Under the pieces are notes generated by a model, which saw only the letters and a program-made list of their open reading frames with translations, was not told where the DNA came from and made no database searches. The translations under genes and the position numbers were made by a program. Shown here piece after piece: positions 41,001-64,000 of a stretch of 64,000 nucleotides of DNA. The stretch is from Callorhinchus milii (Eukaryota). How positions within the stretch are numbered: the stretch's first letter is position 1; each line of letters begins with the position of its first letter. The DNA is taken from positions 12,772,001 through 12,836,000 of the forward strand of contig NW_024704751.1 in the NCBI RefSeq assembly GCF_018977255.1, read 5' to 3'.

Positions 41001-42420
41001 CGAACCCAGGTCCTCTTGCTTGCAAGGCGAGTGCTCTAACCACTGAGCTACAGGACTCCCAAAGAATATGCCAAAGGGACCATGTAAAAAATGCATTACC
41101 AGTAAGAGAATAGATATTGGTGTTTTGATGGACTATCTTGCCATTCTGTAATATTATTAACATGGAACTTTCTCTTCCTTTGTTTGAAGGAAAACCAGGA
41201 GAATGTCAAAGACCTGGTGATCGGCAACACTCAGTTGGGTCACGTGGTATACATTTACAAGTGTGCACAAAGCACTGTTACCGTCAAAGGCAAGATCAAC
41301 TCCATTATTGTTGGTAAGCAGTGGTGAACCAAAGCTCCCAGAGATTTACTTCACTTTCATAAGGTTTTCGTTTGTCCCCTGAAAATGTTGGTCCCTGCTT
41401 GTAGACCAAAAAAAAATCGGCAGTAGATTTAGATATACACTTTGCCCTCTTTTTCAGATAACTGTAAGAAGCTCGGGCTAGTTTTCGAAGATGTTGTTGG
41501 CATTGTGGAGGTCATTAACTGCAGAGATGTGAAGATTCAGGTAAGGGCTGAAAAGGGGAACTGAATTCTGACCTGAAAGTTGGCAGCTGGTCGATGAGCA
41601 AAGTTTTAGTTTAAAGCCCGAGTTTGAAATGGTGGGGGGAGGGGGTTGGGGAGTGCAGGGGGGAATTAAACCTTTGGTGTCTTAACATTGAGGTGATTAC
41701 TGAATTGAACATAGTAATCAGTTAGACTTTCTGTATTTTCTGGTAAACGTTAAAGACTCCATGGCACTTTTCAAAACCAGAAGGGAGTTTCTCACAGTAT
41801 CCTGGCCAACAATTTCCCAGATAAAATTGGCCATACCCTTCATGGCTGCAGGAGCACAGAGACAGACAGTGCTGCTTATGTTGTTTTCTATGTGAGGTCC
41901 AAGTTAGAAACTGGTTTCTACATTTTTCTCTCTCTAGGTTTTGGGTAAAGTGCCAACTGTGTCGATCAATAAGACTGATGGCTGCCATACCTACCTCAGC
42001 AAAGATTCTCTTAATTGTGAGATTATCAGTGCCAAGTCCTCTGAGATGAATATCCTGGTTCCTGTCAATGATGACTTTGTAAGTGAACCTTTTTATTTTC
42101 TCTTCCTCACCTTTCCACTGTTCTACATTGTGTTCTCTTCCATAGTTGAAGAGGTGAGCAAAGCAGGCAAGAGCACTCTATGTCTCTTTTTTTTCTCTCT
42201 CTGTGATTTGATACCAGTTGGGTAATAAAGCTGTCTTGTTAAGATAATGGAGGCCTGTTTGTGTAGCTCTTTAGGAACATGTAAAGATGTGCTCTTTGTA
42301 TTGAGTGTCATTAACCTAGATCATCTTTTTAAATAGATTGAGCACGCTGTCCCAGAACAATTCAAGACTGTCTGGAACGGCAAGAAGCTGGTGACTACAG
42401 TGACAGAAATATCCGGTTAA
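32056..42420 (+). CDS. CAP1: Adenylyl cyclase-associated protein 1 (actin regulator), 12 coding exons, 462 aa
   Basis: Coding exons 32056-32149, 33504-33604, 34466-34543, 35812-35955, 36396-36481, 37016-37121, 39799-39973, 40500-40672, 41190-41313, 41458-41540, 41938-42078, 42337-42420; total 1389 nt. Motifs [34 protein letters not shown]2 [12 protein letters not shown]; C-terminus [22 protein letters not shown] is CAP1-type; tail-to-tail with PPT1 as in human. Confidence 0.95.
40691..41060 (-). mobile_element. Full-length tRNA-derived SINE, same family as 9213-9603
   Basis: Reverse complement reads GGGAGTCCTGTAGCTCAGTGGTTAGAGCACTCGCC...GGGTTCGATTCTC, then the core and the (ATT)n tail. Confidence 0.88.
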
Positions 42421-46493: not shown

Positions 46494-49400
46494 TCACTTT
46501 AGATAAGGGATTATATTGGTGATGAACCATTCCTCAGAGAACTGCAGATGGTCCCCATCCACCGTTAGAAATTGCAGTTTGCCAGCTTTGTCCATCGTTT
46601 TCAACCCCAACCGATCCTTCAGACAAAATGAGAAATTCTAAATGACTATTACCAATATTTTGAGCACCCAGTCATCAGGGCAAAGTGCTTTCAGACACCC
46701 AACATGAATGGTTCTATAAAGTAACAAACTGCATTTGTAAAGCGTCTTTCACATCACATTAGGAGGACGTCCCAAGGTGCTGGACAGGGTTGCAGGGGTG
46801 GATTTGCGAGGGGATGTAATAAAGAAGGTAAGTGGGAAACTTTATTTTCGCCCAAAGCTTCTTGCCTTTTTTAATTGTCTTACCTCTTTGTACAGAACGC
46901 TCTCCTTCAAAGTATAAGTCTCCTTGGCCTGGCCAACTTTGTAGAATCCAAACCACTGGGATGGAGAAACGAGAAGACAATGAATTAATGCTGATTTATT
47001 GCCCTGGAGAGGCAATGACCACTTGGTGTGAAAACAATTCAAAATTGTCTAATGGTTTTAAGAAATGAAACCTTTCAACCAACTATGTACATTATAGGTA
47101 CTGATGCTTGAGGGGATTTCGGACACGATTGTTCTTTCCCTTCCCCAAACAGAAAAGCCCACAGCTTTTTTTTAATAGAAAATCAAAGTCTGAGAACCTG
47201 CCTTGGTGCAGATTGATTCTCACTCTCCAGGACTTCCTCTGAAGCCCTGAATTTAAATACAATTAGGCAAAATCAGTAAAGTAATTTGCCAAATTAAATT
47301 TCTAATTAGTCTTGAGGAGGTAGATATTCAGCCTCACTCTTACTTTTACCTAAAAAAAACTGAAATGTTAATTCTCTGCATTGCAGCAACAGTTAAATCA
47401 ACAAGAGTAAATTTGGGTCCCAAGGTTAAAGCAACGGCTGCAGATGACACTTACCTCTGAATCAACTGGGTCCACCATGGAGTCCTGCAGAAATTTCACC
47501 ATGATAAACTTTTTCAGTTTCATCAGATTGTCTTTGTAGCTTTGATTGATGGCCTGAAACAAAAAAATATGTCCTGGCTTACGTTGCAAGATTTAGATGT
47601 GGCTTTTTAGATTCCTATTCGTGAAGCCAGACTTAAGAGGTAGTTCTGCTATGGATACATTGAACCTGGTCTGTTAACCTGGCCTTGTAGAAATGGATTC
47701 CAGCTATTAATCTGGTGAAGCACTGATTTCATTAACTATTTGATATTAATACATACCCTCTCCTGGTTAATGTCTGCCAGGAAAATGCTTTTGTTCCTGT
47801 AAAGGTCTTCATTCAAGGGATCATGCCAGTACTCTGCCTGCACCAAGCTGATGGAGAAGAAATTGTAAGTAACCCTCATTTCTCGGGTCTCAGGAAAAAA
47901 ATAGCAAACAATTGCTTGACAGAACATAACCCCTTCTTGGGTTTGCACCCGGATAATTTACTGCTCATTTGTGCACCAAAAGAAGGTATCTCTCTCAATC
48001 TCTTCGTCTCTCTGTCCCTCACTCTTTCAGTACCTTGGATGTCTTTCCCAACATGAAAGGTGCGATATGAATGCAATTTGTTGTAACAAATTTCGAGAAG
48101 ATACTGGGTCAATGGAAGTGAAAAAAATTAAAACAATTTCCTTTTTTATTTCACAATACTGGAATACTGAGCAAGAAGAAACAAGAAGTAGCTGTGTTCA
48201 GGCAAGACCACTAGTTCTACTTCTTTTCAACGCTTTGGGACGTTTTCCCTAACTGAAATGTGTTATGTAAATCATTATAAAGTCATTTTCAAACAGTGGT
48301 GAGGGAGGAGGAACAAAATTGAGTTGATTTGAATTGTTCCTCTTTACTGGTTGCTCAGTGACACCCCCAAAGGCTGAAATCTTTCTATACGGTATGCAAA
48401 CCAGGCTTGATAATTTACATAATACCATCAAATTTCTAATACCATACTTACTGGTCTTGAACTGCACTCCTGTAAGCACCTGTGTTCAGCATGTTCCTGA
48501 TCCAGTCACAGATGTGGGAGCTCTCTCCAGGACAGTGAGGCAAGCCATACACGCCTAGTGAAAAGGTCAACGTGACCAGAGTAGGTATTAAAGAAAAATC
48601 TGACGTTATTGGTTTTTGGCATTCAAGCAGCAGTAAGATCTACAATAGACTCAAAAGATCCCTGGGCTAAGCTAAGAAAAGGTAACATCAATCAGGGATT
48701 CTGTTTTCTGATCTTGAACAGAGGACTGTAAATGTTACCTTGATGTTGGCCTCCAAATGTGATGAGGTTGAACATAGCAGGAGAAGGACACCTTTGTGCT
48801 ACTGCTCTCCTGCAACCCAGAATCAAGGAAAAAACAGTGAAACTCTTCTGCATGTTATTATTAATCCTTTCATGATATAGTGCGCCTTATAACATCAAAG
48901 GCTTCACAGTAATTACTGTAATTACAAACACGGTAATTACTGTGTTGGGAGGTGAATACAGCAGTCAATTTGCAACGCAACAATGTTCCACAAACAGCTA
49001 CAATCCATTTTATCCGGGGAATCTTTTGGTCAGCACAACTGGGTGAAACTCCCTTCGAATCATCCCATGTGATCTTTAACATCACTGCGAACAGGCAAAC
49101 AGACGGGACCTTGGTTTAGCGTCTCGTCCGAAGGCACCTCTTGACAATGTAACACTACCCCAGTACTGCATTCAAATGTCAGCCAAAGAAGCAAATGATG
49201 CTCAAGAAGCAACTATCCCATTTGTAAGGATTCAGTCATCTATGTAGCTCACTTTTGGTCTAGGTATCTTTGTTGGTTAGTATCTATTGGGGCGCAATAA
49301 CTGATGAGTTGAATTTCTTATCCATAACCAGTGAATTACAGTATATTATTATTTGGTGTCACTTACAGGAACTGCCCGCCCTGGGAGAAGCCCATTGCAT

Positions 49401-51659
49401 TGTATCCTTTCTGCAGTTTCTCATCTTTGGATAGGACATCACACACCAACTTTACTTGGTCATTCACGTTCATGAAGAAACTGTTCTTCATATCCTGAAA
49501 AACAGTGTTTGTCTTGAGGAAGGGCATTTTGTCAATTCCCTAAATTGGTTACAAATTGCCCTTGATCAAATGCATTATAAACATAAACTGTTTATTTTTT
49601 AGCTGAATTAGCCAGAAAAAAATACGCTATTTATTGCGAGAACTGAATCGTGCCACAAACTCCTTATTATCTGAAAGTGAATAATTTAGTCAATGATCTA
49701 CAAGAATTGTTTTGTCCTTATAAAGAAACAAATGAACTTTGCATCAACAAAAAATATTTGTTTTGAACAATTTATGAGATTGTTGTTTCTGTCTTGAGAG
49801 GCACAGCAACAACAACTTGCGTTTATATAGCACCCTTCGCGCAAGGTAACATGTTGGAACATCTTTTAATGTAATCAATTTTTTTAAAAGAAAAGCTAGA
49901 TCAGCATTGATCCTGGTCTGACTGTTTATTGGACTGCACTTTACCTCAGTAATACTGCTTCCAATTTCCAAGGATAAAACATAAATTCCTGGGATTTTCT
50001 GCTCCACCAGTTTCTTGATGAAGCCCATGCTCAAAGGGTTACAGCAACTGTCACCTGAAATTAAACCATGACAATTTGTTTGAAACACGTTACCTCTGTA
50101 GCTAACAGCAATAATTCCTTTTGTGGTTTTTGTGTGTAAAAGTGAAAGTCGAGCAATATTTTCATCAACTTGAAATCACGTACAAGTCATGCAATGGTGC
50201 CTTTTTGTCACGATTTGTCCTTGACTCTGGTTGAAAATGAACCCCCCAAAAATGAAAACTTAACAATCCTTGCATTTGATATAGAGCTTTATCTCGACGT
50301 TGAAACATCTCAAAGCTCTTCACAGGTTTTACTGTTAAGTGTCAATGACTGTATTTTGTAGGCGTAAAGGGGACAGCCAACTTGTGCATGACAATGTCAC
50401 AATGTCCTCACTTTAATGTAAATTGTGGAATCCTTTAAAGATCTACATCTACGCTCTATACATTTTTCATGCTGATTTAAGATGTTTTGAATGATTACTT
50501 TAAATTAGATTATAGATAATTTGCTTATTGCAGCCTCAATTTCTCCAATTACTTTCACTTAGTGGGCCATTTCTTTGCAAACTCTCACTTCCTACTTCTT
50601 AAATCTCACTAATAGGATTTGCCTGATCTCATCCCGTGACAATGTGTCGATTTCTTAGTCCTTTATTTTCAAAATATCTTTATTTGACAAAACATTAAAA
50701 AAAAACGATGTAGATCGGTCTGGTTGAGAAATGTATAAATTTAAAGCGCTTTATCTTTCTAAAAAAATATATCATTATCATTAGTCAGTGTTTAGGAAGG
50801 AACCAGTTGAGCTGCTTCCAAATTAATATGTAGTAAGTTACTGCAGCACAGAACCACAGAGAGTTACAGCACTGTCACAATGTCCCTACTTTAATGTAAA
50901 TGGTCCCTGTGCTGTTCCTTTGAAGAGTAATAATAATAATAATCCTTGCATTTGATATAGAGCTTTTCACGTCTTCTCGACGTCTCAAAGCGCTTCACAG
51001 AATAGACTGTAAAGTGAATTGACCGTATATTTGTGGGCGAAATCCTCCAGTCCCTTTAAGACCAATTCCCCCGGTTATAGAATCATAGAATTATACAGCA
51101 CAGAAAAAGGCCATTCGTCCCATCGTGTCTGTGTCGGCTCTTTGAAGAGCTATCCAAATCAATCCCACTGCCCGGCTCTCTCCCTCCCTTTAAGAGCACC
51201 GGTTCCCCCCCCCCCCCCATCCCTTTAAGAGCACCCGCCCCCCCAGTCCCTTTAAGAGCAATCCCCCCAGTCCCTTTAAAAGCAATTCCCCCCATCCCTT
51301 TAAGAGCAATCCCCCCCAGTCCCTTTAAGAGCAATCCCCCCCCAGTCCCTTTAAGAGCAATCCCCCCCCAGTCCCTTTAAGAGCAATTCCCCCCCAGTCC
51401 CTTTAAGAGCAACCCCCCCAGTCCCTTTAAGAGCAATTCCCCCCCATCCCTTTAAGAGCAATCCCCCCCATCCCTTTAAGTATTTCTGCCACCAGCGACA
51501 CCCCGCGCGGCTGCTGTTTTCCCTCTCACACTGACCCATGCCGTGCCAGATGACCAGCGGGGGCGGCGCGGTACCGTTGGCGGCCGCTCTCCATGCGGAA
51601 ACCGGGAAGCGGGAGGAGGCGACGAGCAGCGCAGCGACCAACACCAGCAGCGCCGCCAT
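46494..51659 (-). CDS. PPT1: Palmitoyl-protein thioesterase 1 (lysosomal), 9 exons, 306 aa
   Basis: Exons (minus) 51659-51536, 50054-49945, 49494-49367, 48809-48739, 48554-48452, 47847-47757, 47553-47455, 46955-46884, 46616-46494; total 921 nt. Signal peptide, [15 protein letters not shown], nucleophile motif GFSQGG, catalytic Asp in LQDSMVDP and His in GDHLQ. Confidence 0.97.
51215..51480. repeat. About 25-bp minisatellite (CCCTTTAAGAGCAATCCCCCCCAGT) in PPT1 intron 1
   Basis: About ten tandem units read directly, plus isolated copies near 51050 and 51185. Confidence 0.9.
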
Positions 51660-52030
51660 CTTGCCAGTCACATGACCCTGCCTTTCCCGCCCCCTTGCTC
51701 CTCCCGGTCACGTGAGCCAGGGCTGTCGTGTCACCATCACCATCACCCTCCCCAGTCAGCTCGACTCCTCCCCCCCACCCCCGCCTCCGGGGCTCGGGCG
51801 CTGAATCACGTGGGCCCGGGCTGTCATGTGACCCGGTCAGCCCGACTCCTCCCCCCACCCCCTCCTACTCCACCCACTCGCGGGCGCTGAATCACGTGGG
51901 CCCGGGCCTGTCATGTGACCCGGTCAGCCCGACTCCTCCTCCTCCTCCTCCTCCGCTCCCCCCCCCTCTCCAAACATGGCGTGGAGTCACGTGGGCCCGG
52001 GCTGTCACGTGACTTCCTCCTGCCAGCGCG
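51660..52030. promoter_or_regulatory. CpG-island promoter with eight CLEAR/E-box motifs between PPT1 and the SLC17 gene
   Basis: GTCACATGAC 51667, GTCACGTGAG 51707, ATCACGTGG 51805, GTCATGTGAC 51823, ATCACGTGG 51891, GTCATGTGAC 51910, GTCACGTGG 51986, GTCACGTGAC 52004. CLEAR consensus GTCACGTGAC (TFEB/TFE3/MITF) is established knowledge. Confidence 0.8.
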
Positions 52031-52310
52031 AGCTTCAGGTCGGTAGGCAGTTGAGCGGGAAGGGCGCTCGTCTCTCTCTCCCTCTCTCCCTCTCTCTCGG
52101 TGGCTGTTTCTTTTCTTTTTTTTTTTACCTCAGAACTTTTCTCTCTTTGGCCCCCGAGGTGATGTCGGATGCTCGTCTTTCACGTCCGTAACCCGGAGGC
52201 AGTGCAAGCGGCTGTCGACGGGGTGGGGTGGGTGGGGTGGCGGCGGCGGTGTGTCGGGTAAAGGCACGTCCCGGTGTGTGCAGCGTCAGTTTGATCGCTC
52301 ACCTGAGCCG

Positions 52311-52344
<34 letters not shown>

Positions 52345-53996
52345 TAATAATAATAACCCAGTCTACCCGCAGCTCGTTTACAAGCAGCGCAACTGCTTCT
52401 GTGCAACCATCGCACAGTCACCGGCTGTATCATCATCATCATCACCATCACCGCCATCATCATCATCATCCAACGCGCCTCTGTCCCGGACGTCTCCAAA
52501 GCGCTTCACCGGACAACGCTCGTAAAGCGTAGTGACTGTTGTTTTGTGGGGTGAGGTTCTGCTCGCCAAGCGGCGGCCTGGGTGGCTATGCTGGCCGCTC
52601 TCGGCCGGACGTGCGGCGAACAAAAAGCAGCGACCGCGTGGCTATAATTATTATTGTAAGGATGATAATGATAATGGTAATGGTCCTTGCATTTGATATT
52701 GGGTCTGACCGTGCCTTCCAGACGTCCCGAAGCGCTTCGCAGAATACACACTGCGGAGTGAATTGACTGGGATCGACGGTACGCGATGTGGTTTTTGGTT
52801 GGTGGTTGGACTCCCCAGCGGTTACCCCACTCCGGGCTCGACCCCCCCCACCCCCACCACCTCGCCCCCCCCCCCCCCCCCCCGCCCACGCCTACACCCC
52901 AAGCCTCGGGGCTTGCCAATCCGAGCCTAATACTTTCCGGAATTAGGTAAGCAGGACGCGCCCCTCCAAGGAGAGAGAGAGAGAGCGCTCGCGCCGGTTT
53001 CATTCCAGCAATCCAATCTCCGGGATTATCATGAGTAGATGGGATGTATGGAAGTCTCAATTTGGTTTCGATACTCTGAAGCACATTTGTGTCAGACACC
53101 CGACTGTCCTCTCCGCCCCCCCCCCCCACCCACCAAAAAACTAAATGTAAGATGTTACTCCAGACTGTGACTCCAGGCAAATCGTGGATAATAATTCTTG
53201 CATTTAGTATAGGTGTTTAGCCCATATTCAAAGAGGAAAGGGTTCGGAGAGCAGGCGTGAGTGAGGTGTGATGGACAAAAAGCAGTGCGGGTCATGGCCT
53301 CGATGAATGAGCATATGAATGATTCCAGCGTCAATCACTGCTGAACACAGGCTTTGGTCAGACTGTGGGAGCACAGAATCAAGTAAGTACAGCGTTAAAA
53401 TATTTGTGAACAAACTTATTGTTTCGCTGGTTAGAATGATCATCAAAAACGACAAAATTAAATTTGTTGAGGACGTCTGTGAGGACGGTCTTAAGACCCT
53501 TGGAGGATGTCCCAAGGCGCCGGACAGACAGAGTTAGAGACCTGAGCTGGGGGTCGGGGAGGGTGGAGGGCGGGGGGAAAGCAGGGCGATCGAAAGCACG
53601 ATCGAAGAGTAGGGTCTTGAGTTGAGTCTTGAAGGTGGCAAGGAAGGGGGCAAGGCGGAGGTACTGAGTTATCAAATTTTTGGGGGGAATGGAAGGATTA
53701 TTAACCCCGGAAAACGATCTGCCAATTGATTGACAGCCGGTTTCCGACTTACTGCTGGGTACCAGTCCTCTTGCTTGCGAGGCGAGTGCTCTCACCAGTA
53801 CGCTACAGGATTCCAGATGGATAAATGGGCCAAAGTTGAAATGTTAAAAACTGGTATTTTTAATGTTTGCAAATTTCTTGGCAGGTAATACATTGATCAG
53901 AAATCCACTCTTTGTGAATTGTTTGAATATCTTATTTCCCCAGGAGTCGTCAGTAAGTGATTCCAGCCACGCCTCTTTCCAAAGCAAATCCCAACC

Positions 53997-56900
53997 ATGA
54001 CTGACCATCCCGGGTCACCTGTGAAATCAGAAGGCGCCGAATGTCCGAACAGCGGTGTGGAGGAATATCAGTACCGCGGGGCTGTAGAGGAGCACATCGC
54101 AATCCTCAATGAAAATAAATACAAAAATGGTAAGTGACCCCCCCCCCGCTCCCCTATCCAGTTCACCTTTCGCTATACTGGCAGTAGCTTGACATTTCGT
54201 ATCCCAAACTATATACTGTATCCCCAAATATTATTTTCTAACACAAGTCTACCTTCCCAACTCCTCCCTCCACAGGCTGCAGATAATCCAGAACTCTGCA
54301 GCCCGTGTCCTCTCCCGCACCAAACTCTGTGACCCCATCTCCCCCACTCTCGCCTGACTCCAATGGCTCCCTATCCTTCAGAGGATCCAGTTCAAGATCC
54401 TGGTCCTCACGTACAAAGCCCTCCATGGCCTCGTTCCACCCTACCTCTGCGACCTCCTAACCCCCTTCCAACCCACCCGTTCCCTCCGTTCAGCCGGCTC
54501 TGGCTGCTCCACGTCCCCCGACCCATCCGCCCCACCATTGGCGGGAGAGCCTTCAGCCACTCTGCCCCCAACCTCTGAAATTCCATCACCCAGTCTCTCC
54601 GCTTTTCCCCCTCCTTAGCTTCCTTCAAGTCCCGCCTCAAGACCCTCCTCTTCGACCATGCCATCGGCCACCCCCTTTCCCCTCCCTTTGTTCTTGAAAC
54701 AAACAACACTTTCTGCTTCCACTGTCTCCCCAATATTACATTGGTAGTATTATATAATACTGTGATGTATTCATCATCAGGTGGCGGTGAGAAAGAATGT
54801 TGGTTAGAGAAAACACAGGGTTATCTCACTATCACAAAGGCTATGGTGAGGAACATGGGATAGAGGAGGGGGTGAGGGCTAAGAGAGGAAGAAATGAGAT
54901 ATCAATTAGTTTCTTTCACTTTTTTTGGCTAATTGAAAGGACTGCCGATCTTCTTGATCAGTTAATAGTTCAGTTCTGTCTTTCCTCCCCCACCCACCCA
55001 CAAACACACACACAAACACAGGGTCGTGCATTTACTCCAGTCAGAGACACTGCTGTACACAATTGGCTGCCGTGTTTCTCCCACAAAATACCAAGTCAAT
55101 CCATTATACAATGCATTTTGTGAAGCACTCTTAAGGCATTTCAGCAACATGATGAGGTGCTATATCAGATGCAACGATTATTGTTGTTGTTATTGATGCC
55201 TTGGCCCCAGCTTTTGCTCTCAGTAACAAGCTGCTGGGAAGTGGGAGGGTGGGTGGGAGTAATATTTTCCCACACAAAACACCTAGCGTGTGGGCAGCAC
55301 CACCCCCTTGTAGTGGCGCAACTGAGTTTGGTAACATTCACTGTGCAAGGATTTGTGGCAGAGAACCTACATTCCACCCAACCAATGCATAGTGCACTTC
55401 TGTTGCAGAGTTGCACAACAACAATATTTTAACTGGAGAAGGGAGGGAAAGGAGAGGAGGATGATATCAGCCCCTGTTTTCTGTGGTATTAGCCTGCATA
55501 AATATTTAGCAATTCATTAATCTTGAATTATAATTTTTTCATGAGAGGTGGGAAATATTTGTCACCGTTTTATAGCTTATATTCCTCTTCCCGTTTAGAT
55601 TTTGCCTGGTCTGTAGCTTTTCAAAGCCAAAGTTCAAAATCTTGTCATTCCACTCGGCAGTGTGAGTGATAGGCTGCTGCTCTGTGCTTTTGCTTGATGA
55701 GGCAAAACCGAGTGCTGTGGTTCCAGCTTTGTCCCATGACCGTGTTAATGTAGTTCTTTATTTGCAAAATTAAAAACCCGAGTGCTTTTTTGGGGGGGGA
55801 GGGGAAAGGTTTTTTTTAAAAAAAGGTGAATTGGGAGGAGAGGGGATTTTCAACAAAATAAGATTCCCTGATATTCTGTATTTAGTTTGGAATCTCGCAC
55901 GCGGAAACTTGCCTGACTGCATTGCTGATCCCACAACTATGCTCAAACAACAGTTCCATTTGGAAACGAGTTTTGAACCTGTTCAAAGGACTATATTCAA
56001 CGCCTGCTCTTTCGAACACCACCCCAGAGTCTCTGACTCCCTCCCTCCCCTCGTTCAAAATATGTCTCAATATGGAGCTCTTTGAACAATCTTTCCCCCT
56101 CCGCCCCCCTCTTGGTTCACATTCGCAGCTCGGGTGCCCTTCCTTCATTAAGCACTTTGAGATGTCCTCCCGACATGAAAGGCGCTATATCTATGTGTGT
56201 AAATTTGATTTTATAAGAGCACCGTTGCAATGATTCACAATTCCGGCTCTTCTCACAGAATCATACTCTGCAAATAAAATCAGTGAATTCAGATTTAAAA
56301 AGTTAAATTCAGGTTAATTTTTTTTAAAAAAGTTTTAAAAAGGTATTTATCAGATAAAAATGACTTTCGTGCAAAAGTGCCATGTATCCAGCAGGAATTA
56401 TATTGATTTGAATGAAAACGTATCAAATAATAAGATTTTTCAGGAAAAAATGACGCTGTTCAGCTCTTCATACCTGTGCTAGGTCTCACTAAGCACATCT
56501 CGGCCACAAAATACACAGTCGCTGCTTTAATTTGCATTAGATTCTGTGAAGCGCGTTAAGACGTTTCAACGACGTAGTGAGGCATTATATCAAATGCAAG
56601 GATTATTATTATCTGGTTAGCTCCAGTCCCCGGTTTTGCTCATGTATCCTTTCTTTTTTTTCTTTTTGAACTGTTTTGTGGGACATTTTCTGCTGGCATG
56701 GTGTTAGCTCATTTAATGCCACAGTGTGTGTAAATGCTGGGAATTAACTGATCAACAACAACAAAATTACATTTATAGAGCGCCTTTCACGTCGGGAGGA
56801 CGTCCCAAAGTGCTAAACAGTCAGATGTCAGGTCCTGAGCATGGGGGAGGGGTGGTGTAGGGGTGAGGGAAGGCAGAAAAGTGGGAGGGAGACCAAACGC

Positions 56901-59900
56901 ACGGTCGAAGAGAAGGGTCTTGAGACCGGCCTTGAAGAATGCAAGGGAGGAAGCGAGGCGAAGGGACCGTGGAGTTCCAGAGTGTGGGGGCAGAGAGGCT
57001 GAAAGCCCGGCCACCGATGGTGGGTCGGACGGGAGACAAGGAGCAGCCCGGAGCCTGATGAGTGGAGGGAGCGGGTAGCTTGGTAGCGAGTCAGCAGGTC
57101 AGAGAGGTAGGAGGAGGCAAGGCCATGGATGGCTTAAAGGTGAACAGGATTAGTTTACAGAAGTAATTAATCATTTTAATTACAAAACCTGTAATTACCC
57201 CTGTCCACATGGTTTACAGGTTGCGAATTAGACCTGATTTGTTTAGCAGTGGGTGGTATTCACTTTTAACTGTACCATTTGAGGTTGAATGTCAATGATA
57301 AGTTACTTATTTTCAAAATAGATAATTAATGATTGGCTCCTATTACGGTATCGGAGCGAATAGATGCCCAGCTAATATTTCACTTGGTAATGTTGTGACG
57401 CTAATTAGCAACAGTCAGAATTCAACATACTGGTTCAAGTTATCATTTCTGTCTCTCTCCGAAGCACCGATTACACTGTCTTGACTCGGATGCTATGTGG
57501 AAGCATCCGTAGAACCACAAATCCAAGGTGTGGTCAATTAGGAAAAATAAGATGTTCAGTATTTTTCCTGACTTGAGTTCCTGTTTCTTTACAAGGCTCT
57601 ATCTTTCCCTACCTCCTTCCCATTCCTGTCAAACCAAGGTGAAGATAAGTTCTCAACAATTTTGCTATAACGTAATCTAATGGGGCCCTCCAAACTGAGG
57701 ATTTTTCATGGTCATCTTAGGGTCACTAATTTGTGTCCAATGTGCCTGTAGATGACTGTACAACTTCTCTTTCCATCCCCAGTTCCTGTCTGCTGTTCTG
57801 CCCGTTACAACCTTGCCATTATGATGTTCATTGGCTTTTGCATAGCTTATGCACTACGTGTCGATCTCAGCGTTGCCATGGTTGCCATGGTAAATGGCAG
57901 TGAACATCAAAATCTTCTCAACTCCTCAGAGAAAATTTGCCCTAAACATGACAACTACAATGCAACCAACAATGGTTTCCCATCAGGGGTGAGATTTTTT
58001 TCTTTGTCCACTTTCTTTGCCAAATACAGCAGAACCCTGTTATAGTGCGGTGTTGCTTATAAGGCAGATGGCCACGCCTGTTCTCTGTTTTGTGACAATG
58101 ACTGATCTCCTGGATCGCTGTCATATTCTGTAGAACTTACTTATTGCTGCTCATAACCTAAATACAGGCGCTAGTGGGTTAGGTTGTGTATTGTGAGGTT
58201 GGTGATCTTACGCAGGAAGTGATGACAACGACACGGTAATTCAGAAGCTGGCCGGCGTGCTTTGCAGTGACGTTATCAGTTATGCGGTCAGTGATGTGAT
58301 GCAGACTGTGTTAATGGAGCCCTACCTTCTCTCTCTTTCTCTCCTGAAGGTACACTTTTGTTGTACTGGGATACCAATATGTTACCAATTACTCACGTGC
58401 CCTGATGTTAATTGTCTTTTGCGTGGCTTATGCACTACGTGTCAATCTCGGTGTTCTATTGGTGGTGATGCACTTGGTTGATCCTGTCTTGCCCTCCGTA
58501 CAAACAGATCACTATAGCTAGCAGTCAGGAATGAGGACCCATACTTGTTTCTCCCCCACCTCCCTAAACCGAGCCACTGAGGCTAATTGTAACTTTCCCA
58601 TTGTGGGTCTATTGAGTCGAATTGACTGGAGAGATTTCCTGGAATCTTCCCAGTGGGTATGGCTTAGTAACTAATAAATAAACTCACTAAGCAATTGAGG
58701 GAGTTTCAGATCAAGTTATAACAAGAACCCAAATTTTTTCTCTACTGAAGGCAGTGATCCCGAGATTAGCGGCCATTATGTGCGTGCGCATGTGTGCACA
58801 GAGTGCCAGCAAGCATGATAGTGTCTTTTGTTGCGTCCATGGCTAGAAGTGCCTTGTCAGGCCTTTTGGACCTAAATAACTGGAAGGTGCCTGGTGCTAG
58901 AGCATTTGGCAGGACATGAGATTTGAGGATACCGTAATGGCTTTGGGCTACTGCAGGAGTTGAATTGGCTAACACCATGCAATTTACTGTAGGGAACACT
59001 GGCAAGTTTCCTGCTGTTTGTTCAGCTAGGATGAGCAGCAGGTCTGCTCCACCCAGTAGCACTTTGGCTTACAGCAGCTGTGGTTAACTTTTATGGTCGG
59101 CCAACAAAATAAATGTTCTTTATTGAATATTTGCTGACTTATCACGTAAATCGAGATATAGACATTCAAGGAAAGAATGGAACCTCACCATTGCTCCTGA
59201 CCAGAGCCCCATCAATGTTCTTTTACACCAGTAATTCTAATGCACTAAGTTATGCTACCGCATTACGCCACAAAATATACAGTCAATTCACTTAACAGTA
59301 TATTATGTGAAGCACTTTGAGATATCTCAAAGACATAAGGCGCTATATCAAATGAAAGGATTATTATTGTTGTGCTTTTTCCCCCTCCCCCTTTTTCTAG
59401 GTTGAGATGTACAACTGGGATTCTGAGACGCAGGGGATCATTCTCAGTGCGTTTTTCTACGGCTATCTCTTCACCCAGATCCCGGGTGGGTACTTGGCCG
59501 GGCGGTTTGGAGGGAAGGTACTGCTTGGCTACGGGATCCTCAGTGCTGGCATCTTTACCTTGTTCACTCCCATCGCAGCAAAACTAGGAGTGCCTTATCT
59601 GATCGCAGTCAGAGCCATAGAGGGGCTGGGAGAGGTAGGTCTGTCTGTCTGTCTGTCTCTGTCTGTCTGTCTGTCTGTGTGTGTATGTTTGGGAGTGTGG
59701 GGTGGTAATTGAATCTGGAAAGAATAATATTATTTGGTATATCAAAAATGAACAGATTAATCGAAAAAAGCACTATATTGGATTTATTTGAGTTGTGGGC
59801 TTCGGTGACAGCTAATTTCAATCAGGCCACCAGGGTGCACTGTAGCCAGTGCAATGCCTGAATATATCAGTCAGGGCTCATACTCCATAAAGGGGAAGAT

Positions 59901-62900
59901 GGATCCTGGCTGTGATATCTCTTGTCCGTTAGTTCCTTACAGACCAGTAGAAATAGTTTCTCTCTCTGTATAACTTACAAAAACATTTATAATGTTGGAC
60001 TCCAGCAGGTCTTCCCTTAGCAGACCATCATGGATTGAGAGACCAAATTATTATTCTTTTTGGAAGGATTATTACCCTCCAGAAAGCGATCCGTCAATCG
60101 ACCAACAACCAGGTTCCTAGTTACTGCTCGGTAAACGGAGGCATGTGGAGTAAGGAAACTTGCCAAAGATTTCGCCCCATCCAGGAATCGAACCCAGACC
60201 AGCGCTGTAACCAGGATTCTACATCAGTTAATCCACTTAAGCAAACCCTGTGAAGCTCTTTGAGACGTCTCGAATGCAATCAATATTATTATAGAAAGGA
60301 TATTAGAGCTATGGAAAGGGTGGATATGGTCACGAGGATGATGCAGGAGATGAAAAGATAGAACTAGGAGCTGAGAGATTTAACAGAAAAATTTCAAACC
60401 TTGCATCCTGAGTGTTTAATGGGTAACTCATTATTTTTATCTTTTTTAAATGTTTAGGGTGTAATGTTTCCAGCCATGTTTGCAATGATGGCACAATGGG
60501 CACCTCCACTGGAACGCACCAAACTCACAACCATTGCAAGCGCCGGTGAGTGACCTTTTGTTCCACCATTGAGCTGACACAGCAAAGCCCGCGATTAGAT
60601 ACTTGCCTGACTGAGTGTTTTTTTTAAAAAAAAGCATTGGGATTGGGAATGTTCTGTTTTGGGGAATTGCAGAGCTCAAGCTTGAGCTCCAGCACTCCAT
60701 TGAAATGCTGCCTTGGTTTCCAATCTCACAGAAATTTCCCTAAGCTTTTTTGTCGTCCTTTTTTATCTCTTAATCTTGTCATGCAACAGCAGCTCCAGTC
60801 TGTCTAGGAACATAGGGACAGAGTAGGCCATTCAGCCCCTCCAGCCTGTTCCGCCGTTGTGTTAGACTATGGCTGTTCTGTACCTCAACTCCATCCACAT
60901 TGTGAGGCGAGCGCACTAACCACTGAGCTATTGTTGTCAATAGGGCCTTCATGCGTTGTAAACAACAACAACAGGATTACATTTATATGTCCTTCCGATG
61001 TAAACCACAGATTGGGTGCGTGCATACTTCAGTGCAGTGTCTCTCTCTCGCCCGTGGAAGCACATTAGCATTTCTGACTTTTACAGGGACGCAGTTCGGA
61101 ACCTTCATTTCCCTCCCGCTCAGCGGCACGATCTGTCAGTACGTCGGCTGGCCCTGGGTCTTCTACATTTTTGGTAAGTATTTTTTCGTTTTGTTCAAGC
61201 GCTGGGCAGTTTTTGGGATGTTACAGGCCAGTATTTTGTTTTGTTCTCACACGGTGTAAAATAAGTTGCTTTTTTTTTTTTGCTTTCTTCCGTCTCTTGT
61301 TCCGTGTGCAGGTGCAGCCACCGTCGTCTGGTTTGTTTTCTGGCAGATTCTTATTTCAGACTTGCCGCGAAATCACCCGCGAATCTCCGAGCTGGAAAAA
61401 AATTACATTGTCGATAGGTTGGCAAACCAGGTGTGCAGAACGCAAGAGAAGTTGAAGCATTTTACACTATTTTTTTTCCTGTCTATCTGTCTGTCTGCTT
61501 TAGGCTAATGTTTGAGGGATGACCACTACTTTGATATTAACAGCTTGACCTTAAGCAGAAAACTGTGACTTCACATTGTGTATTGATTTACAATGAGCCA
61601 GGTATGTGCATGATTTGTAGGTTTGTTAGGCAGGGCTCACAGTGACAAGCTATGTGTGCTGGGCTGAAACCAGCTAAAATTACAAAGCTTGCCATTTGTG
61701 AGCACTGACTGACAACGCACACTCTGACTTCCCCAAACCTTGAGCTATTGCCAACATGTACCGATTACTCTTCAGAATTGTTTGCTGTTTGCAAGAGCCT
61801 GCTGTGTGGTAAATATCTTGTCACTCATCAGCAATTCCCTGAGGGAAAACCCCGTTAAGATGTTTTGACGTAAGCAGACACAATATCAAATAATAATGCT
61901 TGCATTTGCTATAACACCTATGATGTAAAATGTCTCTGAACTTGCCACAAAATTTCTGTTAAAGTGTAGTTCACGACCGTGTGTTTTGTAGGCAAATGTG
62001 ATAGCTAGTTTTGCACACAGCAATGTCCCACAAACAGCCACGACGAATCATATGAGGGATTATTGGCCAGGACACCAGAAGAAACTCCCTTCTCAAACGC
62101 AAGACCTATTTGTTGGCCACCTTTTGCCCCTCTTGCCTCCCCCCCCATCTTGGGTTCCCAGTCAGCTGCGGTGTAGCACTTTGAGAGGTCATCCTGAGAT
62201 GGAGGTACTATAGTGAATGTATATTGTCATTGTTCTCAGTATTATTCACTTGTAGGTAACTGGTTCTCATGGCTGGTCCATTCCAATGCTGTCGATGGTG
62301 AAATCTGTGCCACTGTGGGCAATCATTGTGACTCACTTCTCCGCCAACTGGTCCTTCTACACCCTGCTGACGGGTCTCCCCACATACCTGAGTGAAATCC
62401 TCAGGTTCAACATCAAAGAGGTATGAATATCTTAAGAGGTGATGCGAGTACAGCAATGCATTGTGTTTAAAATGTGACCGTTTTCTATACAAATGTCCAT
62501 TGGACTAGGAACCAACGGAACAGAAATGGAAACACTGCCCAAGTCGGTGACTTGAGATAACAAAGTTTTTCATTTATTTGTTTAAAAAGTGCTTAAAAAC
62601 GTGTCCTTGGAGTAAAATTTCCCTCACAAAAAGCGGAAGTGCAACCAAGTTGAAATTGTGATTGTTTTTGATACAGTCGTTCAAAGACTAACTGGAGGGT
62701 TCAGAGTGTTGCCCTGTACAGTACAGGGAACAATTTTATGGACTGATTGACAGGTATATTTGCTGCATCTGTCTCTTCCAAAATCTTTACTGACTCTTTG
62801 ATCTTAGTTTAGCTTCATTGTCGGTCAATGTATGTGAAATACAGTATACATTTATATAGCTCCTTCCACATCCGGACGACGTCTCGAAGCGCTTAACTCT

Positions 62901-63912
62901 GCTAGTCGGGCAACCGAGATGGGGATGGGAACGGAAGTAGGGTGAAGAGTTTCTTGCAGTGAAGATAGTTCTTCATTGAGGTGCGCTATGTAACGTGTAC
63001 CTGTGCCCTGTTACAGAACAGCTTCCTCTCTGCGTTGCCTTACCTGGGGGGCTGGTTGGCGATTCTTTTTGGTGGGCAACTTGCTGATTTCCTCAGGAAA
63101 CGTAAAATCTGCTCAACGTTGGCTGTCAGGAAGATCTTCACGTTGCTGGGTAGGTGACTCCCCATGTAGACTGAATACAACAAAGGTGTTTGTGTCCTCT
63201 CTGGAAAAAACTCTGCATTCCTGTAAAGTGGAGTGACTGTGGTATTTTGTGGGCAAAAAAAAATGGTTGTAACAGCTCTTGGCCATTTCCCTCTGTTCGT
63301 TCCCCATATCTGATTCCTACTTTATTGTTATCTAATCGCAGCCATTATAGAAGTTAGGAATGGAGTGGTACCCATCAAGTGTGGACTTTGATATTGGGTT
63401 ATTCAACCACAGAGAGCAATATAGCCAAACCCAATCTCGTCCTCACTTGATATCCACATATTAAACCTACGTCCCTCGGAGATTATTGCATAGGGCCATT
63501 GACCGATCAATGCACTTTATTAACGCACGTCAAAAGACAACAAGAAATTACGTTTATACAGCGCCTTTCACATCAGGAGGAGGTCCCAAGGCGCAGGACA
63601 GTCAGGGATTTGGACCTGAGAAGGGGGTTGGGATCAGGTGGGGTAGAGTATAGGAGTAGGGGTTAGATGGGTGGCCAAAGGCGCGCGGTCGGAGAGGAGG
63701 GTCTTGAGATGTGAGAAAGAGATATGGTGACTTAAATAAAGAAGTTATTTTTGTTCCCATTCAGGCACGTTGATGCCAGCGACATTCCTTATTGCTGCCG
63801 GATACGTGGGATGTAACTACAAGGCGGCAATTGCACTTCTGGCACTTTCCACCACTTTCGCAAGCTTCAACTCATCTGGATTTGCTGTCAATCACTTGGA
63901 TATAGCACCACA
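53997..63912 (+). CDS. Sialin-like SLC17-family MFS anion transporter, 3'-incomplete in this window
   Basis: Exons 53997-54129 (first coding exon, less certain), 57783-57988, 59401-59634, 60458-60545, 61087-61173, 61312-61430, 62256-62420, 63017-63149, 63765-63912; phases consistent. Motifs [60 protein letters not shown]. Orthology to SLC17A5 is uncertain, so no symbol is given. Confidence 0.92.
54240..54690 (+). mobile_element. L2 LINE ORF2 C-terminal fragment
   Basis: Decayed translation [13 protein letters not shown]...[23 protein letters not shown]...[11 protein letters not shown]...[11 protein letters not shown] is typical of L2-clade ORF2 ends. Confidence 0.85.
56752..57150 (-). mobile_element. 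L2 LINE 3' fragment with tail
   Basis: Minus strand encodes [19 protein letters not shown] and [14 protein letters not shown], ending in GGGACGTCCTCCCGACGTGAAAGGCGCT...(TTG)n. Similar pieces near 22080-22240, 53490-53665, 55890-56200 and 63540-63710. Confidence 0.8.
58350..58470 (+). pseudogene. Decayed intronic duplicate of the SLC17 TM1-coding exon (pseudo-exon)
   Basis: Shares GCTTATGCACTACGTGTC (58426-58443) with the real exon (57845-57862); translates [23 protein letters not shown] versus [24 protein letters not shown]. Confidence 0.75.
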
Positions 63913-64000
63913 GTAAGAGCAAAGGGCTGGTCAGTTCCCTTGGGAAGGAAAGAAAACCTAGTCCAGCTTTCCTATATTCTGCATAAGACATGATTAGTTC

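Follow-up and report, generated by a model that had tools for sequence, protein, structure and literature searches.

A tandem-amplified E-box array between the head-to-head PPT1 and SLC17A1-4-type genes of the elephant shark: a candidate shared lysosomal promoter

Introduction

The promoters of mammalian lysosomal genes, that of PPT1 included, carry the CLEAR palindrome GTCACGTGAC and M-box variants near the start of the gene (PMC6003119, PMC7593845). The CLEAR consensus and the M-box are described as bound by MiT/TFE factors, the M-box specifically so, and CLEAR sites as lying mostly less than 200 bp from the start of the regulated gene (PMC6003119), while PPT1 is cited as a TFEB target (PMC7593845). 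Gene pairs are termed bidirectional when their 5' ends are less than 1 kb apart (PMC8895820). Two head-to-head pairs, GALNS-TRAPPC2L (PMC8895820) and GLA-HNRNPH2 (PMC7792484), place a lysosomal gene within 1 kb of its neighbour under a common promoter, as is proposed for the locus described here, although the genes differ.

On the transporter side, a single teleost 'Slc17a1/2/3/4' gene was proposed in 2010 as the ancestor of SLC17A1-4 (PMC2824716), and proton coupling in sialin (SLC17A5) requires E171, E175 and R57 (PMC9858498).

CLEAR arrays, head-to-head lysosomal pairs and a fish ancestor of SLC17A1-4 are already known, and since such promoters and pairs have precedents, the promoter alone would be a modest find. 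SGSH and SLC26A11, a head-to-head pair of a hydrolase and an anion transporter, would be of the same design (the passages of PMC12448385 do not confirm it). The literature covered, mostly open-access and exclusive of supplements such as synteny figures, yielded no paper on a PPT1-SLC17 linkage or shared promoter. The locus of the elephant shark (Callorhinchus milii) differs from the described CLEAR promoters in that its eight boxes were built up through tandem duplication at the site and in that the island has another protein-coding gene leaving it in the opposite direction.

Organization of the locus

The window, that is, the whole stretch of 64,000 nucleotides analysed, corresponds to C10:12772001-12836000 of genome G000, and positions below are in window numbering. 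Contigs of five of the 14 listed runs (X1-X4 and X7) were aligned to it; none of these runs is recorded as RNA, and we treat them as such on the ground that introns of the GT..AG type are missing from their contigs. PPT1 and an SLC17 gene lie head-to-head on opposite strands, as seen by tblastn and from the splice orientation in contigs, and the exons of PPT1 (P0144, with the Pfam Palm_thioest domain) and of SLC17 (P0121) match the arrangement given in the first-pass annotation. One exon of each gene is 100% identical to a protein labelled Callorhinchus milii. The parts are as follows:

46494..51659, minus strand: PPT1 coding region, nine exons, ATG at 51657-51659 (tblastn of P0144; Pfam PF02089, Palm_thioest; spliced RNA loose end at 51534)
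51660..51688, minus strand: PPT1 5' leader, minimum extent in RNA (contigs to 51670 in X3 and 51688 in X7); contains E-box 1
about 51450..53250, no strand: CpG-rich island, from PPT1 exon 1 through SLC17 leader exon A (CpG scan)
53944..54129, plus strand: SLC17 ATG exon, ATG at 53997, encoding an N-terminal tail with the dileucine-like EHIAIL (RNA joints, tblastn of P0121)
57783..63913, plus strand: SLC17 coding exons 2-9 (tblastn of P0121, RNA joints, trees); two further exons lie beyond the window end, at window-equivalent 64542-65189

The acceptor ending at 53943, which had been read in front of the ATG exon, is indeed used in four of four runs. The gene order is CAP (plus strand, about 41190-42080), PPT1 (minus), SLC17 (plus), an EEF1A gene, a BTB-BACK gene and Elongin A. 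The EEF1A gene comes immediately after SLC17, at L009:2636-4500 (window-equivalent about 76.6-79 kb); one of its exons is 94% identical to a copy on the unplaced contig C1264, and the BTB-BACK-Kelch gene and Elongin A come next.

Several smaller features were observed within the two genes. Intron 2 of SLC17 holds a degenerate second copy of exon 2 (58348-58518, plus strand; TM1, ...AYALRVNL...), for which no in-phase acceptor was seen and no Pfam match was obtained; X4 covers its bin, though without exon 2. The database isoform P0122 (400 aa; 54111-54129 and 59401) begins at an ATG further into the first coding exon and skips exon 2, and would be without the tail motif and TM1. A minisatellite of about 11 copies of a 24-26-bp unit occupies 51212-51480, a stretch of PPT1 intron 1 that lies just below the island.

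The E-box array

Eight E-box cores lie within 51667-52013, a cluster narrower than the CpG island that holds it:

51667..51676, no strand: E-box 1, GTCACATGAC (M-box/CLEAR-type), 7 nt before the PPT1 ATG
51707..51716, no strand: E-box 2, GTCACGTGAG, within a degenerate fourth copy of the tandem unit (alignment)
51791..52013, no strand: three copies of a paired-box unit (TCACGTGGG, then GTCAYGTGAC 18-19 bp further) with a period of about 86-95 bp; six boxes, the last being the perfect CLEAR palindrome (TRF, alignment)

The first-pass annotation had counted eight CLEAR/E-box motifs in 350 bp, including a perfect site. As a count of cores this stands, as does the perfect palindrome GTCACGTGAC at 52004-52013: the mean over 2000 dinucleotide shuffles was 0.41 cores, none of the shuffles reached eight, and elsewhere in the window no 360-bp stretch has more than two. 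It requires qualification in that only five of the eight carry both the TCA and TGA flanks, the other three being TCACGTGGG, and in that the boxes are not independent, six deriving from three copies in a tandem duplication of ~86 bp and a seventh from the degenerate fourth copy (TRF, alignment). When two tandem copies were removed, four cores were left, a number again reached by none of 2000 shuffles; the four sites of the GTCAYGTGAC type were likewise matched in none of 2000.

A 27-bp unit has three exact matches genome-wide, all of them in this array, which identifies the array as a local amplification and rules out a mobile element. A looser paired-box pattern gave 20 matches across the genome, as against 29 for a reversed control that is without CpG and hence lenient, so that pairing as such is not shown to be enriched. 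Elsewhere, two paired E-box sites of opposite orientation were observed 1.3 kb apart (C1:13208217 and 13209480), possibly another divergent CLEAR-type promoter. No CLEAR-type site was seen at the true sialin locus (C3:246-296 kb), a stretch that has a gap and in which sialin exon 1 was not located.

SLC17 leader RNA

Upstream of the ATG exon, the contigs reveal two non-coding exons:

52476 or earlier..52778, plus strand: SLC17 non-coding exon A, donor ACG/GTACGC at 52779; joined to exon B in X1 with 300 letters and in X4 with 25 letters
53208/53213..53382, plus strand: SLC17 non-coding exon B, two acceptors 5 nt apart, donor CAA/GTAAGT

The joint from 53382 to 53944 occurs in four of four runs from two studies, and a single X1 contig spans 52476-52777, 53212-53382, the ATG exon and later exons. 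In X4, a joint from 52777 to 53207 has 25 letters on its short side, below the 31-letter bar, and gives weak support from a second study. The X1 and X4 joints together indicate that exon A is spliced to either of two exon B acceptors separated by 5 nt. This splicing of exons A and B to the ATG exon means that at least one SLC17 transcript starts within 788 bp of the PPT1 RNA end: PPT1 RNA extends to 51688 and SLC17 RNA to 52476 or earlier, a distance of at most 788 bp for one isoform, and for that isoform the pair falls within the 1-kb definition of a bidirectional pair. The observed leader holds 11 upstream ATGs.

The 5' end of exon A is hidden in masked TAA/ATC repeats, where the unaligned letters, if contiguous, would reach about 52376 (X1) or about 52321 (X2). 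The bins from 51695 to 52474 are without cover in four of four runs, and since much of this stretch is masked repeat and GC-rich, the gap is evidence in neither direction. Contig depth over exon A is below that over exon B in X2 and X3, though depth cannot rank parts of one gene. Between 52591 and 52656, in exon A, four substitutions are common to X2 and X3 and probably represent a second allele.

A firm joint between exons A and B is present in one of five runs (X1), and the exon B contigs of X2, X3 and X7 begin exactly at 53212, unjoined upstream, from which it follows that the main SLC17 isoform may start elsewhere. An exact start at 53212 in three runs nevertheless fits a branch at the tandem acceptors better than it fits a ragged start site. 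A possible first exon ending near 52947 was discarded, the stretch 52897-53109 being a dispersed repeat inside the intron skipped by X1 and X4.

Candidate plus-strand donors had been proposed near 52039-52043 and at 52258, with a junction from about 52040-52260 to 53944 as the expected product. The GT sites exist, and those at 52039 and 52043 could be joined to an acceptor with a strong polypyrimidine tract at 52133. Among the joints listed (15 of 254) plus one further joint, none uses 52039, 52043 or 52258; the observed donor is 52779, and the two non-coding exons are used in place of the expected junction.

Shared or separate control

Since spliced SLC17 RNA reaches the PPT1 CpG island, we regard a promoter shared by the two genes as likely for at least one isoform. 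The proposal that the SLC17 promoter is the PPT1 island is supported to this extent, for one isoform whose RNA comes within 788 bp of PPT1 RNA.

The strongest competing explanation holds that the array is PPT1's own CLEAR promoter and that SLC17 is an old neighbour, with its main start further on, near the repeat-derived exon A/B, and regulated separately, by tissue for example. Exon A matches a dispersed repeat over part of its length, which we take to be SINE-like, and on that ground probably arose after the gene pair; in three of five runs the exon B contigs have no join on their upstream side, and conserved adjacency is by itself no proof of common control. PPT1 is, moreover, a known TFEB target (PMC7593845), and box 1 lies inside its leader. 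Such an arrangement is harder to reconcile with spliced plus-strand RNA that extends to 52476 or earlier, with the exact 53212 start and its better fit to a tandem-acceptor branch, and with a scan of 52020-53950 in which neither a TATA box nor a second E-box cluster was found. On balance we consider separate control unlikely, while giving it more weight than the remaining alternatives.

A promoter may also be shared yet constitutive, with USF1/2 and ETS- and YY1-type factors giving housekeeping expression and the SLC17 arm showing no response to starvation or lysosomal stress. Boxes of the GTCACGTGAC type are also USF sites; an ETS-like ACTTCC adjoins the perfect box and YY1-like words occur at 51654 and 51973 (identities that we assume for these motifs), and three boxes are flanked on one side only. 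What renders this improbable is the presence of three TCATGTGA-type M-boxes, at 51667, 51823 and 51910, a type of site that is specifically MiT/TFE-bound (PMC6003119).

Identity of the transporter

The transporter had been annotated as sialin-like, a reading that the trees correct. The window gene falls outside the SLC17A5 clade, and the place of sialin is held by a gene at C3:222-253 kb. The latter is one of two further sialin-type genes on C3: it groups with shark and other vertebrate sialins, and the other (560-577 kb) is a divergent cartilaginous-fish copy. The clade of the window gene comprises proteins of coelacanth, lungfish, sturgeon and teleosts together with, from amniotes, a turtle 'NPT3-like' protein, peccary SLC17A3 and a cat 'small intestine urate exporter'; two uninformatively named rows also belong to it, with branching that roughly follows the species tree. 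Its support is 100/98 under LG+G4 (28 rows) and 99/95 under a mixture model (23 rows, omitting three invertebrate-type representatives, P0411 and the divergent C3 copy); the NPT-side rows include none named SLC17A1. Forcing the window gene and its fish paralogues together with the sialins, apart from the amniote NPT rows, was rejected (AU p=1e-4, for a group named after the tree had been seen).

On these trees, the transporter is a single-copy forerunner of mammalian SLC17A1-4 and not an orthologue of sialin, so that the known lysosomal location of sialin is not transferable to it. Its placement agrees with the teleost ancestor proposed in 2010, in a clade that takes in bony-fish Slc17a1/2/3/4 and mammalian NPT1, NPT3, NPT4 and NPT5 (PMC2824716); in comparison with that proposal, the clade is here extended to cartilaginous fish and linked to PPT1 and the CLEAR array. 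'Sialin' labels in databases hide the orthology of these proteins to SLC17A1-4. Long fused protein records proved to contain tandem MFS domains only (Pfam).

The window protein nonetheless resembles sialin in fold family (E 3e-177 to PDB 8dwi), exon layout, an acidic dileucine-like tail and an EEF1A gene directly downstream. Since eEF1A1a adjoins slc17a5 downstream (PMC5339811), the EEF1A gene next to each suggests that the two are ohnologues. MTO1, CD109 and EEF1A1 were sought beside the C3 sialin and gave matches on unplaced scaffolds or none on C3. The divergent C3 gene (557900-576800; L012-L014) is a third, sialin-derived gene in which E171 has become A and the pocket is remodelled; it groups with a sawfish 'sialin-like' protein and may mean that cartilaginous fishes lost proton coupling independently in this gene.

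Conservation of the gene pair

In the sturgeon Acipenser sinensis, PPT1 (FKN15_019489) and the SLC17 paralogue (FKN15_019488) have consecutive locus tags on one 56,631-base contig, and in Latimeria the accessions XP_005993967 (PPT1) and XP_005993969 (paralogue) are two apart on the same 22,682,709-base record. As a comparison for accession order, the two elephant shark genes, whose adjacency is established, have XP_007906942 and XP_007906946. The evidence of accession and locus-tag order, indirect but consistent, thus places PPT1 beside the SLC17 gene in all three main jawed-vertebrate lines, and the divergent pair appears to be old, dating from early jawed vertebrates. The synteny in other fishes that had been suggested as a check is indicated in coelacanth and sturgeon as adjacency, the order of identifiers being silent on orientation, distance and boxes. 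We take human PPT1 to have no SLC17 neighbour, human SLC17A1-4 lying elsewhere. PPT1 was present on none of 48 loci in a metagenome scan. Two PPT1-like genes were observed on one chromosome in Heptranchias and Hemiscyllium (P0151, P0233, P0231), suggesting a local PPT1 duplication in elasmobranchs.

Predicted function of the transporter

Residues are numbered after a mammalian sialin of 495 aa, which agrees with human sialin at the positions given in PMC9858498. The proton-coupling set R57, R168, E171 and E175 is kept in the window protein and in all 15 paralogue rows, and Y54, Y119 and N430 are also kept in the window protein. In contrast to sialin, H183, Y301 and S/N411 are replaced by F, A and A, and N59 is D in the elephant shark. 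H183 and Y301 occur in none of the 15 paralogue rows, as against 9 and 11 of 12 sialin rows, respectively. A TM4 pattern matched 118 of the best 120 of 1744 profile matches, all 118 with E171 and E175 and none with H183. Replacement of H183, Y301 and S411 points to a substrate other than sialic acid.

An N-terminal [DE]xxx[LI][LI] motif is present in 110 of the best 120 of these 1744 matches, a raw count without a chance control and over sequences not all placed in a tree; the same pattern misses two true fish sialins. The window protein's own version, EHIAIL, is non-canonical (IL). A dileucine-like motif is found in seven of seven fish-grade paralogue rows; among the amniotes, the turtle has it and the four other rows do not; E171 is replaced in four of five amniote NPT-like rows. 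The window protein thus differs from the mammalian NPTs in keeping the proton-coupling glutamates and the tail motif, which these have mostly lost.

The simplest reading of these residues is that the transporter exports by coupling to protons, is sorted to the lysosome and has a pocket that differs from that of sialin. From the sorting-like motif and the retained coupling residues, we consider a lysosomal location somewhat more probable than not, while its closest mammalian kin, being plasma-membrane, voltage-driven exporters (PMC10149257), count against it. That the protein is already like the mammalian NPTs, a plasma-membrane organic-anion or urate exporter whose pairing with PPT1 makes no lysosomal module, would suit its orthology with SLC17A3/A4, the loss of H183 and Y301 and the non-canonical tail motif, yet is the least probable alternative given E171, E175, R57 and R168 here and the fish-grade distribution of the dileucine-like motif.

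Proposed model and its implications

We propose that PPT1 and the SLC17A1-4-type gene point away from one CpG island whose tandem-amplified E-box array would be bound, at its palindromic and M-box sites, by MiT/TFE dimers. These sites being symmetric, the dimers may act on both genes: TFEB and TFE3 would drive the pair, with USF the likely basal occupant, so that the thioesterase of the lysosome would increase in parallel with an organic-anion exporter that is likely lysosomal and proton-coupled, and that would be sorted to the lysosome by its N-tail motif.

As a whole, with a shared array, TFEB/TFE3 drive of both genes and a predicted lysosomal exporter, this model is tentative, and we hold its chances to be somewhat under even. 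A TFEB/TFE3 response of the transporter gene is, on its own, close to an even prospect, and the odds for the shared promoter, this response and the lysosomal location are correlated. Against the model, the boxes are explicable by PPT1 alone and three of the eight are without CLEAR flanks. E-box 1, inside the PPT1 leader, agrees with the spacing of less than about 200 bp that is usual for CLEAR sites; the perfect site is up to 463 bp from the 5' extent of SLC17 RNA, and 300-460 bp may separate it from the point where SLC17 transcription begins, more than is usual. Nothing in the sequence data ties the transporter's cargo to the product of PPT1.

The value of the locus lies in the partner gene, and its evolutionary side is the interesting part. 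A lysosomal H+/anion exporter under CLEAR control may have been the ancestor of the NPT exporters. A fuller scenario, possible though doubtful, is that the jawed-vertebrate ancestor had a second lysosomal SLC17 exporter, a sialin ohnologue, head-to-head with PPT1 on one CLEAR promoter. Fishes would have kept it as a proton-coupled exporter of some lysosomal anion; the line to mammals would have left the PPT1 promoter, lost the glutamates and the sorting motif, and given rise to the NPT exporters, which are driven by voltage and carry urate and drugs in kidney, liver and gut. The question of how SLC17 carriers switch between proton-coupled lysosomal export and export driven by voltage has been posed as an open one (PMC10149257). 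If the scenario is true, the fish protein would be a living intermediate for this switch of energy source and membrane. NPT exporters are linked to gout, and the window gene and its fish orthologues are candidates for their ancestral state, with the zebrafish orthologue (P0124) making location, coupling and TFEB response directly testable.
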